A DNA stretch of 64,000 nucleotides from Escherichia coli. Lineage in GTDB: Bacteria; Pseudomonadota; Gammaproteobacteria; Enterobacterales; Enterobacteriaceae. The position numbers and the translations under genes are program-made. The stretch lies in NCBI RefSeq assembly GCF_044324875.1, contig NZ_CP172185.1, one strand, 5' to 3'. The notes under the pieces were generated by a model that had not been told where the DNA came from, did not search any database, and saw only the letters and a program-made list of their open reading frames with translations. Positions 7,527 through 54,290 of this stretch are shown here, piece by piece. Numbering within the stretch: position 1 is the stretch's first letter; every line of letters begins with the position of its first letter.

Positions 7527-7970
7527 ATGCGGTTTATTGATTATTTTCCAGAATCATCAATCTCAGTTATACATTCAGCAAAAGATTGGCAGGAAGCTAT
7601 CGATTTCTCGATGGCATCATTGCTGGATAAAAACTATATCAACGAGAATTACATTCAGGCAATTAAAGATTCCACCATTAACAATGGCCCTTATTATATT
7701 CTCGCGTCAGGTGTGGCAATGCCTCATGCTCGACCGGAATGTGGGGCGCTTAAAACCGGGATGTCTTTAACGTTACTTAAACAAGGTGTTTATTTTCCGG
7801 GGAATGACGAACCGATAAAATTACTCATCGGCCTTTCTGCTGCCGATGCCGATTCGCACATTGGCGCTATTCAGGCGTTAAGTGAATTATTGTGTGAAGA
7901 AGAAATACTCAACCAATTATTAACAGCAGCATCAGAAAAACAATTAGCGGACATTATCAGCCGCGGATAA
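7527..7970 (+). CDS. cmtB: Cryptic mannitol-type PTS enzyme IIA component
   Basis: 147 aa; PTS EIIA(Mtl/Fru) fold with the conserved MPHAR histidine motif; matches CmtB. Confidence 0.9.
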   Translation: MRFIDYFPESSISVIHSAKDWQEAIDFSMASLLDKNYINENYIQAIKDSTINNGPYYILASGVAMPHARPECGALKTGMSLTLLKQGVYFPGNDEPIKLLIGLSAADADSHIGAIQALSELLCEEEILNQLLTAASEKQLADIISRG

Positions 7971-12171: not shown

Positions 12172-12881
12172 AAATTGAATTAACGGTGAATGGTCTGAAG
12201 GTACAAGCACAGTACCATGTTGATGAGATAGAAAATGTACATAAACCGTTGCTGCGCATGTTGGCGGCCTTACAGACGGTAAATCCGCAGCGGCGTACGG
12301 TGGTTTTTCTTTGCGCTCCGCCGGGGACGGGTAAATCTACCCTAACCACCTTCTGGGAATATCTCGCGCAACAAGACCCGGAACTACCCGCTATACAGAC
12401 GCTGCCGATGGATGGTTTTCACCATTACAATAGCTGGCTGGATGCGCATCAATTGCGCCCCTTCAAAGGCGCACCAGAGACATTCAATGTAGCGAAACTG
12501 GCGGAAAACCTGCGCCAGGTCGTGGAAGGGGATTGTACGTGGCCACAGTACGATCGACAAAAGCATGATCCTGTTGAAGATGCGTTGCACGTTACCGCAC
12601 CACTCGTCATCGTCGAAGGAAACTGGTTGTTACTGGATGATGAAAAGTGGCAGGAGTTGGCATCTTTCTGCGATTTTTCTATTTTTATTCATGCACCTGC
12701 TCAAATTCTGCGGGAGCGCTTGATTAGTCGTAAAATTGCGGGAGGATTATCGCGGCAAGAAGCCGAAGCTTTTTATGCCCGAACCGATGGTCCCAATGTC
12801 GAGCGTGTGCTGGTGAATAGTCGTCAGGCCAATCTGATAGTAGAGATGACCGAAGAAGGCAGATATCACTTCAAAAGCTGA
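12168..12881 (+). CDS. yggC: P-loop NTPase/kinase family protein
   Basis: 237 aa; Walker A (PPGTGKST); 4-nt overlap with yggD. Confidence 0.85.
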   Translation: MKIELTVNGLKVQAQYHVDEIENVHKPLLRMLAALQTVNPQRRTVVFLCAPPGTGKSTLTTFWEYLAQQDPELPAIQTLPMDGFHHYNSWLDAHQLRPFKGAPETFNVAKLAENLRQVVEGDCTWPQYDRQKHDPVEDALHVTAPLVIVEGNWLLLDDEKWQELASFCDFSIFIHAPAQILRERLISRKIAGGLSRQEAEAFYARTDGPNVERVLVNSRQANLIVEMTEEGRYHFKS

Positions 12882-13165
12882 CAATTTATTCCAGTTATTG
12901 CAGGGGTATTATTACGCCAGCCTGGAATAAAGCCCCCTACAAAAGGGGATAAAAGTGTGATGTAAGTCAGATAAATGTCTTCTTCGGCTGGACAATCATT
13001 CCTTTTATTCCACGTTTCGCTTATCCTAGCTGAAGCGTTTCAGTCGATTAAATGTTCGACAATTAACCAATCAGTCGCAGTTTGCGACAGGTAAGGTTTC
13101 CCCGGACGATTTGCTGGATTACTCTGTCTGGCAAATTTGCTCAGGGAAAACCTTGCAGGAGATCT

Positions 13166-14185
13166 ATGACCGTACGCGTAGCGATAAATGGCTTCGGTCG
13201 CATCGGGCGTAATGTGGTTCGTGCCTTGTATGAATCCGGACGCCGGGCGGAAATTACCGTGGTGGCAATCAACGAACTGGCGGATGCTGCGGGCATGGCG
13301 CATTTGTTGAAATATGACACCAGCCATGGCCGTTTTGCATGGGAAGTACGACAGGAACGCGATCAACTTTTTGTTGGTGATGACGCCATCCGCGTATTGC
13401 ATGAACGTTCACTGCAATCGCTCCCCTGGCGTGAACTTGGCGTTGATGTAGTCCTCGACTGCACCGGCGTATATGGCTCCCGCGAGCATGGCGAAGCGCA
13501 TATTGCCGCCGGGGCCAAAAAAGTGCTCTTTTCACATCCTGGCAGTAACGATCTCGACGCGACCGTTGTTTACGGCGTCAATCAGGATCAACTTCGTGCG
13601 GAACACCGCATCGTTTCTAACGCTTCCTGTACCACGAATTGCATAATTCCCGTCATCAAATTGTTAGATGATGCGTACGGTATTGAGTCCGGCACTGTGA
13701 CCACAATTCACTCCGCCATGCACGATCAACAGGTTATTGATGCATACCATCCTGACCTGCGTCGCACTCGGGCAGCCAGCCAGTCGATCATTCCGGTCGA
13801 TACTAAACTGGCCGCCGGTATCACACGATTTTTTCCGCAATTTAACGATCGCTTTGAAGCGATTGCGGTACGTGTGCCAACCATAAATGTGACGGCAATC
13901 GATTTAAGCGTGACGGTGAAGAAACCTGTAAAAGCCAATGAAGTCAACCTGTTGCTGCAAAAAGCAGCACAAGGTGCATTTCATGGTATAGTTGACTATA
14001 CGGAATTGCCGTTGGTCTCTGTAGATTTTAACCACGATCCGCACAGTGCCATTGTCGATGGCACCCAAACCCGGGTCAGTGGCGCACACCTGATCAAAAC
14101 GTTGGTCTGGTGCGATAACGAATGGGGCTTTGCTAACCGAATGCTCGACACGACGTTAGCTATGGCTACTGTTGCTTTCAGGTAA
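13166..14185 (+). CDS. epd: D-erythrose-4-phosphate dehydrogenase
   Basis: 339 aa starting [15 protein letters not shown]; GAPDH-family with active-site SCTTNC. Confidence 0.95.
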
Positions 14186-16758: not shown

Positions 16759-16858
16759 CTGATGCGCTACGCTTATCAGGCCTACACGTATCCTGCAATA
16801 TATTGAATTCGCAGGTTTTTGTAGGCCGGATAAGGCGTTCACGCCGCATCCGGCATGA
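16759..16858. repeat. REP/BIME cluster (two REP units in opposite orientation)
   Basis: gcctgatgcgctacgcttatcaggcctac and gtaggccggataaggcgttcacgccgcatccggca. Confidence 0.8.
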
Positions 16859-17966: not shown

Positions 17967-19010
17967 TTAACGCATTGTTTCATCGAGTATATTGGCAACT
18001 TTTTGCATGACTTCCCCGGCTTTCTCCACGCCTTCCTTATTTTGCTTTTCTACCCACTGTGCTTGTTCTTGCTGATAACCGATCGCTTTCTGCCAGGCGT
18101 CCAGCCCTGATTTTTTCAGATAGCGAACCTGTGCACCTTCCTGCTCAAGCGTTTTTACCATGCTGATCAGGTTGTTATCTAATGCCTTGCCCAGTGCTTT
18201 CTCGGTTGTAATGGCAGCTCGTTGAATAGCCTCACGATCTCTGTTATCAAGGTTTTCCCACGATTGTTTATTCATTACCAACAGATAAACATGACCAAGC
18301 CAGAGAGAAGGTGAGAGCAACACATTCGGCGCAGCACGTTCAGCATGGATGTCATATCCGCTATCGAGATTGACCATTAAACCATCCAGTTTTCCATCCA
18401 TGAGTGCTTTAGTTATTTGATCATTCCACGGTAAAGTTACGGTTTTTGCCCCCGTATGAGTTAAATAAGCCCGATGCCAGAAACTGGCTGTTCGCCAGGT
18501 GGTTCCCTGAAGCGCAGTCAATTTATCAATGGGCCTGGTAGAGAAAAAGCCTACCGGGTAGCCAAGGAAAAACTGTAAATTCACGATATTGTTACGCTCA
18601 AGTTCAGCGTTAAATTCGGGAATTTCCGCATATACGCGACGAAAGAATTCTACCTGACTGGCTCCATGATCCGGGCCAATAGCAAAGCTCTTGAAGATTT
18701 GATGAAGCGGCAATTGTTTCGCGGTGTATTCCGGCACCACTATACCCATATCAGCTTTGCTGCCATCGCTTATTGTCGTCAGAGCGTCATAGCTGATGGC
18801 GGTTTCACCGTTCCAGTGTGGTTCGATTTTCAAACGCCCCTGCGACTCTTTTTCAATTTCTGCAAAAAATATCTCTTTAATTATTTGTGTACGCATTCCC
18901 CCGTAGGGTTCATGGTCTGTATAACGAAGAATTTTTTCAGCAGCAAAAATCGAGGGAGATAACAGAAGAAATCCTGATAAAAGAAAGGGGAGTAATTGTC
19001 GGTAGTGCAT
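17967..19010 (-). CDS. Orphan TRAP-type (DctP-like) periplasmic solute-binding protein, apparently accessory
   Basis: 347 aa; signal peptide MHYRQLLPFLLSGFLLLSPSIFAAEK; DctP-like motifs (HVYLLVMNKQSWENL, LDGLMVNL); AAGGAA ribosome-binding site; no DctQ/DctM permease genes nearby. Confidence 0.65.
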   Translation of the reverse strand: MHYRQLLPFLLSGFLLLSPSIFAAEKILRYTDHEPYGGMRTQIIKEIFFAEIEKESQGRLKIEPHWNGETAISYDALTTISDGSKADMGIVVPEYTAKQLPLHQIFKSFAIGPDHGASQVEFFRRVYAEIPEFNAELERNNIVNLQFFLGYPVGFFSTRPIDKLTALQGTTWRTASFWHRAYLTHTGAKTVTLPWNDQITKALMDGKLDGLMVNLDSGYDIHAERAAPNVLLSPSLWLGHVYLLVMNKQSWENLDNRDREAIQRAAITTEKALGKALDNNLISMVKTLEQEGAQVRYLKKSGLDAWQKAIGYQQEQAQWVEKQNKEGVEKAGEVMQKVANILDETMR

Positions 19011-19125
19011 ATCTGTTCCTTCAGTTTATTAATTCAACTTATACTATATTAATTTTATCAATTATCCCTAATGTTATTCCTGCGCTATAGTCTGCGCATC
19101 AGATAATTAGCCCGGAATTAATTAC

Positions 19126-19760
19126 GTGATATCTTATTACTTTCAAGGTCTTGCACTTGGGGCGGCTATGATCCTACCGCTCGGTCCACAAAATGCTTTT
19201 GTGATGAATCAGGGCATACGTCGTCAGTACCACATTATGATTGCCTTACTTTGTGCTATCAGCGATTTGGTCCTGATTTGCGCCGGGATTTTTGGTGGCA
19301 GTGCGTTATTGATGCAGTCGCCGTGGTTGCTGGCGCTGGTCACCTGGGGCGGCGTAGCCTTCTTGCTGTGGTATGGTTTTGGCGCTTTTAAAACAGCATG
19401 AGCAGTAATATTGAGTTAGCCAGCGCCGAAGTCATGAAGCAAGGCAGATGGAAAATTATCGCCACCATGTTGGCAGTGACCTGGCTGAATCCGCATGTTT
19501 ACCTCGATACTTTTGTTGTTCTGGGCAGCCTTGGCGGGCAACTTGATGTGGAACCAAAACGTTGGTTTGCGCTCGGGACAATTAGCGCTTCTTTCCTGTG
19601 GTTCTTTGGTCTGGCTCTTCTCGCTGCCTGGCTGGCACCGCGTCTGCGCACGGCAAAAGCACAGCGCATTATCAATCTGGTTGTGGGATGTGTTATGTGG
19701 TTTATTGCCTTGCAGCTGGCGAGAGACGGTATTGCTCATGCACAAGCCTTGTTCAGTTAG
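19126..19760 (+). pseudogene. argO: Arginine exporter ArgO (LysE family) split by a 1-nt frameshift
   Basis: Two ORFs (91 aa and 120 aa) that concatenate to the 211-aa ArgO sequence; frame switches at the overlapping ATGA at 19398–19401. Confidence 0.7.
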
Positions 19761-19852
19761 GCGCTATCTGATGGAAAAATAAAACAGAGGCGCTAAGCTT
19801 GCCTCCAGAGGTCCTGAATTTTAGGCAAGTCAATTAACACGGAGAGACTAAC

Positions 19853-20760: not shown

Positions 20761-21657
20761 ATGGACATTTTTATTTCGAAAAAGATGCGCAATTTCATTT
20801 TATTAGCGCAAACCAATAATATTGCCCGGGCGGCAGAAAAAATCCATATGACGGCTTCGCCATTTGGCAAAAGCATTGCCGCGCTGGAAGAACAAATTGG
20901 CTATACGCTATTTACCCGCAAAGATAATAATATCAGCCTCAATAAAGCCGGGCAGGAACTGTATCAAAAACTGTTCCCGGTTTATCAACGACTTTCTGCG
21001 ATTGATAATGAAATCCATAACTCAGGACGTCGTTCACGAGAAATTGTGATAGGCATAGATAATACTTATCCGACCATTATTTTTGATCAGTTGATTAGTC
21101 TCGGAGATAAGTACGAAGGCGTGACCGCCCAGCCAGTTGAGTTCAGCGAAAACGGCGTTATCGATAATCTTTTTGACCGTCAGTTAGATTTTATTATCTC
21201 CCCACAGCATGTATCTGCACGAGTTCAGGAACTGGAAAATCTGACTATCAGTGAACTACCACCGCTGCGATTGGGCTTTCTCGTTTCTCGCCGTTATGAA
21301 GAGCGTCAAGAGCAAGAGCTGCTTCAGGAGCTGCCCTGGCTACAAATGCGCTTTCAGAACCGGGCCAACTTCGAAGCAATGATTGATGCGAATATGCGAC
21401 CTTGTGGGATCAATCCAACCATTATTTATCGTCCCTACAGTTTTATGGCCAAAATCAGCGCCGTGGAGCGCGGACATTTTCTGACGGTGATCCCGCATTT
21501 TGCCTGGCGACTGGTGAATCCGGCAACGCTGAAATATTTTGATGCACCGCACAGGCCGATGTATATGCAGGAATATCTTTATTCAATCAGAAATCATCGT
21601 TATACCGCCACGATGCTTCAGCATATTGCTGAAGATCGTGACGGGACGAGTCATTAA
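20761..21657 (+). CDS. ygfI: LysR-family transcriptional regulator
   Basis: 298 aa; N-terminal helix-turn-helix; position matches ygfI; 3' end overlaps the convergent scpC by 4 nt. Confidence 0.85.
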   Translation: MDIFISKKMRNFILLAQTNNIARAAEKIHMTASPFGKSIAALEEQIGYTLFTRKDNNISLNKAGQELYQKLFPVYQRLSAIDNEIHNSGRRSREIVIGIDNTYPTIIFDQLISLGDKYEGVTAQPVEFSENGVIDNLFDRQLDFIISPQHVSARVQELENLTISELPPLRLGFLVSRRYEERQEQELLQELPWLQMRFQNRANFEAMIDANMRPCGINPTIIYRPYSFMAKISAVERGHFLTVIPHFAWRLVNPATLKYFDAPHRPMYMQEYLYSIRNHRYTATMLQHIAEDRDGTSH

Positions 21658-23132
21658 CCCAGCATCGAGCCGGTTGCAATTAAATTACGGTGTAAATCGA
21701 AGACGTGGCTAAGATCGTGGTGAATATGTCCGCCGGGCGCATTTTCCAGATAGCGATGCAGATAATCCCGATACATAGGATGTGCACAATTATCAATGAT
21801 AGTGCGGGCGCGTTGAAGCGGGGAAAGACCACGCAGATCGGCGATCCCTTGTTCGGTGATGATCACTTTGACGCTGTGTTCGCTGTGATCAACATGGCTG
21901 CACATTGGCACGACGGTTGAGATCTTGCCTTCTTTAGCAATCGACGGGGCCATAAAGATCGACAGATACGCGTTGCGTTCAAAATCGCCGCTGCCACCGA
22001 TGCCGTTCATCAGATCGACCCCGGCTACGTGCGTTGAGTTGGCATGCCCGTAAATATCAAACTCCAGGCCGACGTTCAGAGCGATGACGCCCAGACGACG
22101 GATGATTTCCGGGTTATTGGAAATCTCCTGCGGACGCAACACAATGCGGCTGGCAAAGTAATCCATATTGTCGTAAATCTTGCGCAGGGAATCGGCCGAG
22201 ATAGTCAGGCTGGAGGCGCTGGCCCCGCTGATTTTGCCCGTTTCCAGTAAATGCACCACCGATTCCTGTAGCACTTCCGAATACATCATAAACGGAGGAA
22301 TTTCCGGATTTTCCCCCAGACGCGCCATTACCGCATTATTGATGTTGCCCACGCCACTTTGCAGCGGCAGAAATTCCGGCGGAATACGCCCATGCGCCAT
22401 TTCCTGCAACAAGAACGTGACCACGTTATCGGCAATCTGCTGGCACATGGGATTTTGCTTATCCAGCATATTACCGGCGTCGGGCAAGTTGGTTTCCACG
22501 ACGGCGACAATCTTTTTCGGATCGATTTGCACATAGCGGGTACCGACGCGATCCATTGCATGGAAGATCGACACGCTATTGCGCCGCGGTGGCGCGCCAG
22601 GAATCACAATATCTGCCAGTTCTGCAACGCGCGGATCGTGATAGTGATTGAGTTCAATGATCACTTTCTTCGCCCGCAGCAGCCAGGTCGGCGCATTACC
22701 GATCCCGCTGGTTAACCAGACTCGACCATCCGGTGCCAGTGCCGATGCTTCAATGACGGCAACATCAATTTCGCCGAAGAAACCGTAATTGACCATTTGC
22801 GCCACTTCGCTCAAATGCAGGTCAACGAAACTCACCGCGCCCTGATTGATCTTTTTACGTAAACCGGACGATGTTTGATATGGCGCACGCTAGGAAACAG
22901 CATCGGCGTCAGAAAGTACATCGTCAGCGGCGGCGCTGATTGACGCCCCCGTCAGCAGGCGAATTTGATACGGCTTTTTGGCCTCATGCTGTTCGTTAGC
23001 TCTGCGGGCAATCGCGGTGGGTAAGGCTTTCGGCGAACCCGCTGGGGTAAAGCCGCTAAATGCCACCATGTCGTTATGCTGGATAATTTCTGCCGCTTCA
23101 TCGGCGGTCATCCTTGTCCACTGAGTTTCCAT
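21654..23132 (-). pseudogene. scpC: Propionyl-CoA:succinate CoA-transferase interrupted by an in-frame amber codon
   Basis: N-terminal 80 codons (METQWTRMTADEAAEIIQ...DADAVS) end at TAG (minus strand, 22890–22892); the same frame continues with the rest of ScpC; the full span is 492 codons. Confidence 0.75.
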
Positions 23133-27286: not shown

Positions 27287-28180
27287 TTAATCCTGACGAA
27301 GGACTTTGTGACCATAATCGAGCAACGCATCAGTGACTTTACGCATCATGCGGCTTTCAGGAGCAAAGCGGTGCCAGTAGAGCATCCGGCGTTGAAATAG
27401 CCCTGGCGTTAAGTCAATCAGTTCACCGCTGGCCAGTTCTTTCTCGATTTGCAGGTGCGGGATCATACAGCAGGTGGTGCCCTGGCGAGCAAGTTGCACG
27501 AACGCTTCTGAAGAATTAACGATATGGCACGGTACGCTGCCTGGGGGCAGATCGAAGTTTTGCTGCAAAAAGGCCTGGTGCATATCGTCAAGATGGTCAA
27601 AGGCGACCACAGGTGCTTTCAGTAATGCCGAACGCGTTACGCCGTTAGGGAAATATTTTTCGGCAAACGGTTTTGAGCTGACGAACAGATAGTCGAGCGC
27701 ACCGAGCTTATCGACAAGACAGCTCGGCAGCGCCTGATGTTGAATACTCACCGCGCCGACCACTTCGCCGCGGCGCAGGCGTTCCTGAGTGCGGGTTTCA
27801 TCTTCTACCTGCAAGTTGAGGCGGATAGGCGAATCAGCCAATACAGGAGCCAGCGCCGGAAGCAACCACGTCGCCAGACTGTCGGCGTTGACCGCCAGTG
27901 AAAGCAGCAGCGGAGTCGAACCGGTTTGTTCATCGCCCAGCCACTCTTCTTCCAGCAACTCCACCTGGCGCAGCAGTGCCAGCAGTTTTTGCCCTTGTTC
28001 TGTCGGGCGCGGTGGTACGGTACGCACCAACAGCGGCTGCCCGAACATATTTTCCAGTTGCTTAATGCGTTGTGAGACGGCTGATTGTGTAATGCACAGC
28101 TTTTGTGCCGCGCGCTCAAATCCTCGTTCACGTATCACCGCATCCAGTGCCTGTAATGTTCTGTAGTCCGGGCGTTTCAT
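27287..28180 (-). CDS. argP: LysR-family regulator ArgP (IciA)
   Basis: 297 aa starting [43 protein letters not shown]. Confidence 0.95.
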
Positions 28181-30989: not shown

Positions 30990-31140
30990 ACGATGGCAGG
31001 GCAGCATGGTGCTGTAACGGTAAAGCCCTCACCGAAGCGAGGGCTTGAAGGAGAAGGGTTATGATGCGACTTGTCATCATACTGATTGTACTGTTACTCA
31101 TAAGTTTCCCAGCTTATTAACAGTCAGTCTCAGGGGAGGA
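30990..31140 (-). ncRNA. sibC: SibC antisense sRNA (antitoxin of ibsC); boundaries approximate
   Basis: Expected from the position between serA and ygfA and the presence of the ibsC ORF on the opposite strand; ends not determined from sequence. Confidence 0.4.
31061..31120 (+). CDS. ibsC: Type I toxin IbsC (19-aa hydrophobic peptide)
   Basis: ATGATGCGACTTGTCATC... encodes MMRLVIILIVLLLISFPAY; followed by a gggaggaGTCATcctccc hairpin. Confidence 0.8.
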   Translation: MMRLVIILIVLLLISFPAY

Positions 31141-31220
31141 GTCATCCTCCCTTACCCTTACTCACTAAATTAGGTTAAAGAATCAACGATGTCAATCAGG
31201 GCGATGCAGGTGTGTCGCCC

Positions 31221-31843: not shown

Positions 31844-32027
31844 GGAATCTCCGAGATGCCGCCGCAGGCTGTAACCCTTGAACCCTTGGTTCAAGGTGAA
31901 TGTGTCGTCGCAGTTTTAAGGCTTCTCGGACGGACCGAGCATGCTCACCAACCGCGGAGCGCCACATTCTTGTGGTATGAAATATCGGCTCAGGGGACTG
32001 GCCCGCTTGCGAACATCTCAGAGAAAT
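31844..32027 (-). ncRNA. ssrS: 6S RNA
   Basis: Reverse complement matches 6S RNA (5'-ATTTCTCTGAGATGTTCGCAAGCGGGCCAGTCCCCTGAGCC...GGAGATTCC-3'); immediately upstream of fau as in the ssrS-ygfA operon. Confidence 0.9.
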
Positions 32028-44624: not shown

Positions 44625-44800
44625 TGTGCATTAGTAGGCCTGATAAGACGCGTCAGCGTCGCATCAGGCATCGGATCGCAACTGCCGGATGCGGCGTGAA
44701 CGCCTTATCCGGCCTACGGGCCGCGTCCTTGGTGTGATAAAGGCACCAAATCCCAGGCATGATAAGACGCGTCAACGTCGCATCAGGCAATAGTCGCCGG
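44625..44800. repeat. BIME cluster (three to four REP units)
   Basis: Repeated gcctgataagacgcgtca(g/a)cgtcgcatcaggc and gccggatgcggcgtgaacgccttatccggcctac units. Confidence 0.85.
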
Positions 44801-50825: not shown

Positions 50826-51924
50826 ATGTTTGAAATTAATCCGGTAAATAATCGCATTCAGGACCTCACGGAACGCTCCGACGTTCTTAGGGGGTATCTT
50901 TGACTATGACGCCAAGAAAGAGCGTCTGGAAGAAGTAAACGCCGAGCTGGAACAGCCGGATGTCTGGAACGAACCTGAACGCGCACAGGCGCTGGGTAAA
51001 GAGCGTTCCTCCCTCGAAGCCGTTGTCGACACCCTTGACCAAATGAAACAGGGGCTGGAAGATGTTTTTGGTCTGCTGGAACTGGCTGTAGAAGCTGACG
51101 ACGAAGAAACCTTTAACGAAGCCGTTGCTGAACTCGACGCTCTGGAAGAAAAACTGGCGCAGCTTGAGTTCCGCCGTATGTTCTCTGGCGAATATGACAG
51201 CGCCGACTGCTACCTCGATATTCAGGCGGGGTCTGGCGGTACGGAAGCACAGGACTGGGCGAGCATGCTTGAGCGTATGTATCTGCGCTGGGCAGAATCG
51301 CGTGGTTTCAAAACTGAAATCATCGAAGAGTCGGAAGGTGAAGTGGCGGGTATTAAATCCGTGACGATCAAAATCTCCGGCGATTACGCTTACGGCTGGC
51401 TGCGTACAGAAACTGGCGTTCACCGCCTGGTGCGTAAGAGCCCGTTTGACTCCGGCGGTCGTCGCCACACGTCGTTCAGCTCCGCGTTTGTTTACCCGGA
51501 AGTTGATGACGATATCGATATCGAAATCAATCCGGCGGATCTGCGCATCGACGTTTATCGCGCGTCCGGCGCGGGCGGTCAGCACGTTAACCGTACCGAA
51601 TCTGCGGTGCGTATTACTCACATCCCAACTGGGATCGTGACCCAGTGCCAGAACGACCGTTCCCAGCACAAGAACAAAGACCAGGCCATGAAGCAGATGA
51701 AAGCGAAGCTTTATGAACTGGAGATGCAGAAGAAAAATGCCGAGAAGCAGGCGATGGAAGATAACAAATCCGACATCGGCTGGGGCAGCCAGATTCGTTC
51801 TTATGTCCTTGATGACTCCCGCATTAAAGATCTGCGTACCGGGGTAGAAACCCGTAACACGCAGGCCGTGCTGGACGGCAGCCTGGATCAATTTATCGAA
51901 GCAAGTTTGAAAGCAGGGTTATGA
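50826..51924 (+). CDS. prfB: Peptide chain release factor 2, requiring a programmed +1 frameshift
   Basis: Frame 0 runs 50826–50900 ([25 protein letters not shown]), then CTT TGA C at 50898–50904; the +1 frame continues 50902–51924 ([12 protein letters not shown]...SPGQ motif...KAGL); AGGGGG Shine-Dalgarno-like element just upstream of the shift site. Confidence 0.95.
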
Positions 51925-54042: not shown

Positions 54043-54290
54043 AATTTCTCACATGTAATTCTAATCACTCATCATTATAGATAATTGAAGAGTGAAATGA
54101 TTAACCAAGTGAGCGTTTATCGACAACCGCCCGTTTTGAGCGGATGTCGACAGGTAAAACCATTTAAAAAAGCAGCATCATATATTTGAAGCGACTTTCA
54201 ATGGCCATTGCAACACAGTCAGAAATGACAGGAATAGAGAGAGTAAAAAGCAACAACAGACTGAATATAGCGCGCATTAAAAGATTCATA

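Follow-up and report, generated by a model that had tools for sequence, protein, structure and literature searches.

A one-base deletion divides the arginine exporter gene argO into two overlapping reading frames in a young Escherichia coli clone

Overview

In a 64,000-nucleotide stretch of Escherichia coli DNA (hereafter, the window), the arginine exporter gene argO lacks one base at codon 91 and is carried as two overlapping open reading frames (ORFs). The missing base is very probably an inherited 1-bp deletion, fixed in a single clone, that has left argO a loss-of-function pseudogene. The deletion, its inheritance, its absence elsewhere and the lack of recoding signals are matters of direct observation; loss of exporter function is what we infer from the sequence as the most likely outcome. 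A preliminary description of this DNA had offered three readings of the split gene, namely a true pseudogene, a sequencing error, and a stop–start coupled pair of genes. The first is favored by the lack of a Shine–Dalgarno (SD) sequence at the internal start, by a substitution (Q139L) in one sub-clade of carriers, and by the confinement of the allele to one shallow clone. This is a known gene undergoing ordinary lineage-specific decay, with nothing that falls outside known kinds.

Organization and Identity of the argO Locus

The features of the locus, including the gene of its regulator, are as follows.

19011–19125, plus strand: intergenic region upstream of argO, on the promoter side and divergent from dctP.
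19126–19401, plus strand: argO 5′ fragment, GTG start, 91 codons corresponding to ArgO residues 1–91 (predicted helices 1–3), closed early by a TGA that the frameshift brings into frame.
19397–19398, plus strand: deletion point, where one nucleotide has been lost between C19397 and A19398 and the third base of Ala91 is absent in alignments to intact argO.
19398–19401, plus strand: ATGA overlap, formed by the ATG of native codon Met92 together with the TGA at which the upstream frame now stops.
19398–19760, plus strand: argO 3′ fragment, ATG start, 120 codons corresponding to ArgO residues 92–211 (linker and predicted helices 4–6).
19540, plus strand: site of Q139L, an A>T change (CAA>CTA) in a sub-clade of the frameshift lineage; the window keeps the ancestral A.
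27287–28180, minus strand: argP, matching argP of strain E200086 over its full length without gaps at 98.0% identity, and free of internal stops.

ArgO (YggA), the ArgP-regulated L-arginine/canavanine exporter of the LysE family (TC 2.A.75), is a single chain of ~209–211 amino acids in 30 of 30 aligned orthologues. The window has no single uninterrupted ORF of that length; its argO is read as 91 and 120 codons in two frames, with the 3′ fragment shifted by −1 from the 5′ fragment. Both ORFs match the Pfam LysE family (PF01810), the 91-aa ORF at profile positions 2–81 and the 120-aa ORF at positions 90–192, of 193. Joined, the 211 residues match the NCBIfam model NF006801 (‘arginine exporter ArgO’) with 428 bits over positions 1–211 of 211, for an equivalog cut-off of 298, while the halves alone reach 187 bits (positions 1–91) and 229 bits (positions 92–211), both below the cut-off. 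The full-length match describes the ancestral, conceptually repaired gene and neither of the ORFs now present. It also bears out the earlier observation that the ORFs at 19126–19401 (91 aa) and 19398–19760 (120 aa) concatenate to the 211-aa ArgO; the C-terminus reported for the first ORF (…GFGAFKTA) is likewise found in the ORF list and in the sequence, and the sequence and the alignment to intact argO agree with a 1-nt frameshift that splits the gene at an ATGA junction.

A single substitution, L104M, separates the repaired ArgO from the intact protein of strain 266917_2, and its identity to the sequence representing the main E. coli ArgO cluster is 99%. The gene order fbaA–mscS–dctP–argO–yggE–srsR–scpC matches annotated E. 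coli chromosomes, so that the mscS…argO–yggE order is kept, and the regulator gene is present. The aligned part of the upstream region (19050–19125) is identical in the window and in two strains with intact argO. Further downstream, argP, the LysR-type activator of argO, is intact, and the regulatory half of the system is thus retained. Compared with E. coli ArgO, the window therefore shares the locus, its synteny, the aligned upstream region, argP and, after repair, the full-length equivalog match; it departs in being one base short at codon 91 and in having no single 211-codon ORF.

The Missing Base

Over 801 nt, taking in the 636-nt gene and its flanks, alignment of the window to intact alleles reveals exactly one gap, which falls at argO nt 273. 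The preliminary description had called for an alignment to reference argO, and against every intact allele examined the outcome is the same single missing base. The identical gap at nt 273 is found in loci L005, L012–L018, and L021–L023 of the set that we compared.

In intact alleles, codons 91 and 92 read GCG ATG in the nearest relatives, which also have dctP beside argO, and GCA ATG in K-12-like alleles. Near the deletion site the window argO mixes sequence of the dctP type with sequence of the K-12 type, and the lost base was therefore a G or else one of two adjacent As. Whichever base was lost, the site is not a homopolymer run. Thus, the change first proposed for this junction (GCAATG to GCATG) is right as to the loss of one base, but the ancestral codon need not have been GCA, since GCAATG occurs only in K-12-like alleles and the nearest relatives have GCGATG. 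Similarly, the ‘A run’ invoked as an error-prone site does not exist, the lost base being a G or part of an AA dinucleotide.

Distribution and Age of the Frameshift Allele

An 801-nt query (19050–19850) located argO in 5425 of the 5426 complete RefSeq E. coli genomes, and the match spans 802 nt in 30 of the 30 matches listed; the two ORFs are thus a broken copy of this core gene and not a chance arrangement. A 46-mer placed across the argO junction had zero matches in the same 5,426 complete genomes, and neither the GTDB species representatives nor the JGI metagenome contigs contained a 35-mer across it. These empty searches show rarity and nothing else. The intact neighbor loci L001, L002, and L019 are annotated as ArgO, and by these comparisons an intact argO is the ancestral and prevalent state in E. 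coli.

The allele does occur in public data. The exact 91-aa product is already deposited as SRB13925.1 (‘arginine exporter [Escherichia coli]’), and the corresponding ORF is found in 52 contigs (57 index blocks). The count of carriers was limited to loci with the 91-aa ORF. The 120-aa C-terminal ORF occurs on more contigs (99), but sharing it was rejected as a sign of the same lesion, since many of these contigs are K-12-like and damaged differently upstream, or come from noisy (long-read) assemblies. Carriers within the clone diverge by no more than 2 SNPs in 11.7 kb. Since the junction is absent from complete genomes and its carriers are this similar, the frameshift allele marks a rare, very young and shallow E. 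coli clone, for which the junction sequence is a handy specific marker.

Position of the Cut in the Protein and the Case for a Functional Split

Hydropathy analysis of the repaired ArgO identifies hydrophobic segments at residues ~5–25, 37–60, and 65–88, then at 111–138, 150–172, and 183–200, with a charged hydrophilic stretch at 89–110. An AlphaFold2 model places helices at residues 2–16, 20–33, 36–64, 66–92, 108–120, 123–137, 142–174, and 177–210, with the loop 93–107 as its lowest-confidence region. The model is of moderate quality (pLDDT 67, pTM 0.57) and was used solely for helix boundaries, on which it agrees with hydropathy. A sequence search for a solved ArgO structure found none, and a Foldseek search of the model against the PDB returned nothing below E = 0.3. 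Residues 88–105 are the most variable stretch of ArgO among 30 orthologues from ~8 genera.

According to Tsu & Saier (PMC4608589), the LysE superfamily descends from a duplicated unit of three transmembrane segments (TMSs), and the stretch joining TMS3 to TMS4 is hydrophilic. Read against the predicted helices, the frameshift cuts ArgO after helix 3, at the hinge between the two 3-TMS repeats. The inter-repeat linker is the most tolerant place for splitting ArgO, and a cut at this repeat boundary is compatible with independent folding of the two parts, as judged by the predicted helices and the linker 93–107.

This position raises the alternative that the split gene still works, with termination at TGA19399–19401 followed by reinitiation at ATG19398 and assembly of the two three-helix halves into a functional ArgO. 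We regard such a functional fission as improbable, although several features speak for it. The ATGA stop/start overlap is the classical arrangement for termination–reinitiation, and to this extent the stop–start coupled gene of the preliminary description has a basis in the sequence. The cut coincides exactly with the hydrophilic linker that joins helices 3 and 4; no part of ArgO varies more, and its superfamily was built by duplication of a 3-TMS unit. The aligned part of the promoter side and argP are intact. In addition, the related UPF0016/CaCA2 family occurs naturally in cyanobacteria as adjacent 3-TMS gene pairs, proposed to form heterodimers and conserved across species (PMC4067407). 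Like the split argO, these pairs consist of two neighboring ORFs that each encode one 3-TMS repeat of a 3 + 3 transporter.

The translation signals, however, argue against a working pair. No SD sequence was detected upstream of ATG19398, where the best pairing with the anti-SD sequence is −1.5 kcal/mol, a value equaled or bettered by 68% of all ATGs in the window. By comparison, ten of eleven real starts tested fall between −3.5 and −8.6 kcal/mol, the weakest being rpiA at −2.9; the argO GTG has −3.5. Reinitiation without an SD sequence is probably inefficient, and it is by such inefficient termination–reinitiation that any of the second half would have to be made. The restart codon itself is the native Met92, which is not conserved (residue 92 is M, F, or L across the 30 orthologues), and its presence at the junction is, for that reason, incidental.

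The evolutionary record points in the same direction. Whereas the UPF0016/CaCA2 pairs are conserved across species, the argO split is a recent mutation of one clone, with a second ORF that has no ribosome-binding site (RBS) and no sign of selection. It is confined to a single very shallow clone and found in no other E. coli or ArgO orthologue examined, so that the split state is not maintained across diverged lineages; all 30 aligned orthologues are single-chain, each half scores below the ArgO equivalog cut-off, and the invariant Q139 has already been replaced in one sub-clade. The stop–start coupled reading is thus disfavored despite its overlap, by the missing SD sequence, Q139L and the one shallow clone. 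In its most specific form, namely that an accidental recent fission has recapitulated the ancestral two-subunit state of the LysE superfamily as a working arginine/canavanine exporter, we consider it quite improbable. If true, the split argO would be a natural test of whether a 3 + 3 inverted-repeat transporter tolerates fission at its inter-repeat linker.

A Genuine Allele Rather than a Sequencing Error

Under a second alternative, the argO of this strain is truly intact and the missing base is an artefact of sequencing or assembly. Single-base indels are the commonest assembly error, and the site would have offered an AA dinucleotide if the ancestral codon was GCA. Against this, the same gap is carried by two other NCBI assemblies, GCA_002467655.1 (NMMD01000008.1, 6.3 kb) and GCA_958308375.1 (3.7 kb), both 100% identical to the window here, and by at least eight independently assembled SRA runs that lie 1–2 SNPs or one indel away from it. 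The gap-carrying, read-derived Logan assemblies include SRR31121697, SRR31121307, SRR31121820, SRR31121952, SRR31121767, SRR31121916, and SRR21141798. Gap-carrying runs depart from the window at positions 16849, 18017, 19540, and 21073, and by an extra C at 20812; with one or two such differing sites per run, they therefore represent distinct isolates or samples.

The deletion also lies outside any homopolymer, and the window is otherwise almost free of similar changes. In an indel census, in which 63 annotated coding sequences (CDSs) of strain E200086 were mapped onto the window, coding indels were found in argO and the 72-nt yqfH only; prfB had its normal programmed frameshift and no gap. 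Because the deletion recurs in independent assemblies and the window is, apart from yqfH, otherwise clean of coding indels, an artefact is very improbable, and the sequencing error considered in the preliminary description is effectively excluded. That description had named relatives restoring a 211-codon ORF as the outcome that would count against a split argO, and the opposite was found: the closest sequences share the deletion.

Absence of Recoding Signals

The least probable alternative, which we consider extremely unlikely, is programmed recoding, whereby ribosomes shifting into the −1 frame, or else slippage during transcription, around TTTTAAAACAGC would restore full-length ArgO in useful amounts. 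A T4A4 stretch (19386–19393) does lie just upstream of the junction, and a −1 shift within 19392–19401 would restore the frame with at most two residues altered, but the T and A runs are only 4 nt long, too short for efficient transcriptional slippage, and the zero-frame codons (GCT TTT AAA ACA) offer no slippery heptamer. None of the form X XXY YYZ was found within 19392–19401, the only interval in which a shift would restore the frame (TTT AAA ACA GCA TGA). Likewise, the search for a stimulatory RNA structure was negative, the 87 nt downstream folding no better than shuffled sequences (z = +0.55), and no SD-like frameshift stimulator was found at the argO junction. Finally, the argO frameshift occurs in 0 of 5,426 complete E. 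coli genomes and in 0 of 30 aligned orthologues.

A genuine recoding site is found in the same window and provides an internal positive control.

50826–51924, plus strand: prfB, with its programmed +1 frameshift site AGGGGGTATCTTTGAC at 50889–50904.

The product of prfB, like that of the split argO, requires a change of reading frame. The prfB site AGGGGGTATCTTTGAC, however, has an SD-like stimulator and is unchanged in the annotated prfB of the reference genome, and the argO junction has neither property.

Predicted Consequences and Relaxed Constraint

If argO is, as we think very probable, a pseudogene, the loss of its function can be rationalized as follows. With the third base of Ala91 lost, translation from the native GTG ends at the TGA after residue 91, and the product of the 5′ part is a three-helix fragment. 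Residues 92–211 are stranded in the −1 frame behind the native Met92, with no RBS. The gene is probably still transcribed, given that the aligned upstream stretch is unchanged and argP is intact, yet no functional exporter would be made. The predicted phenotype is canavanine hypersensitivity and loss of arginine efflux. A statement in PMC8498466, citing Nandineni & Gowrishankar (2004), describes argO-null E. coli as canavanine-hypersensitive. As a pseudogene, argO thus predicts that the whole clone is hypersensitive to this plant antimetabolite and unable to export excess arginine.

One change within the lineage hints at relaxed selection. Q139 is invariant in 30 of 30 ArgO orthologues (~8 genera) and lies inside an invariant block (residues 116–140), but it is replaced by leucine in a sub-clade that accounts for 29 index blocks. 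Q139L is one of two substitutions across 11.7 kb in the clone, and, as a single event, its fit with relaxed selection on argO is not statistically significant. Apart from this substitution, the argO halves are undamaged, and the clone is too young for a dN/dS analysis; at a divergence not exceeding 2 SNPs per 11.7 kb, the undamaged halves are uninformative either way on argO function.

In kind, the window argO resembles other frameshift pseudogenes of E. coli and Shigella clones, which likewise consist of a single-base indel in a conserved core gene of a shallow clone. It also shares with them a nearby inactivation (the scpC nonsense codon described below) and the later substitution of an invariant residue. 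What sets it apart from ordinary frameshift pseudogenes, as a sole curiosity, is the coincidence of a cut at the inter-repeat linker with an ATGA that uses a native Met.

The lesion also bears on annotation. Both fragments have already been deposited publicly as separate small ‘LysE/ArgO’ proteins, and SRB13925.1 and SRB13927.1 list separate ‘LysE family’ proteins; the two ORFs merit merging as one frameshifted argO pseudogene.

Other argO Lesions, Neighboring Genes, and Structured RNAs

Independent argO lesions in other E. coli assemblies cluster around a TGGGGCGG run (argO nt 220–246; loci L003 and L007–L010). For instance, L003 has a 16-bp deletion of nt 231–246, and L007 (AP027807.1) has an additional G at nt 225. 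In L010, as in eight similar contigs besides, G221 is deleted, and in L008 and L009, as in four similar contigs besides, G221A turns W74 into a stop codon. Judged by these alleles, argO may be recurrently inactivated in E. coli.

Three other genes of the window differ from their counterparts in other strains in sequence or context.

17967–19010, minus strand: dctP, an orphan TRAP-type substrate-binding protein (Pfam PF03480), between mscS and argO.
21654–23132, minus strand: scpC (propionyl-CoA:succinate CoA transferase), with an in-frame stop at codon 81 (22890–22892; …DAVS*RAPYQ) and no indel.
54097–54190, plus strand: yqfH small ORF, with GTAAAACC (A4) in the window versus GTAAAAACC (A5) in strain E200086.

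The scpC gene lies 1.9 kb downstream of argO, and the same split into 80 + 393 aa is called in other contigs of the clone; scpC is a second pseudogene of this lineage near argO, and its decay speaks for reading argO as one too. With its A4 tract, yqfH changes frame close to the end of its 23 codons and becomes ~7 codons longer. No genes for TRAP membrane components are adjacent to dctP, and K-12-like loci (L003–L011) are without dctP.

Compared with strain E200086, the window is strongly mosaic, with full (100%) identity in yggP, glpX, fumE, mscS, dctP, scpB, and fldB, ~97% in gcvP, pepP, and tkt, and 93.9% in cmtB (7527–7970), a pattern that indicates recombination patches. At 12813–13166, the window is without a ~3.1-kb cluster of five genes that E200086 has between the yggC-like kinase gene and epd, and that encodes two ABC ATPases, ECF T and S components, and a PPC-domain protein.

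Four structured RNAs score above the Rfam gathering score.

16778–16820, minus strand: ES036 sRNA.
31045–31195, minus strand: Sib antitoxin RNA, opposite an ibs toxin ORF (31061–31120).
31844–32027, minus strand: 6S RNA.
44637–44714, matches on both strands: naRNA4 (REP-derived).

Lastly, a read-derived contig of the clone, locus L015 (SRR31121307), carries an additional C in srsR at the equivalent of window position 20812, and the called product of this LysR-family regulator gene is shortened from 298 to 269 aa. This is a genuine secondary frameshift, or else the run was misassembled at this point.
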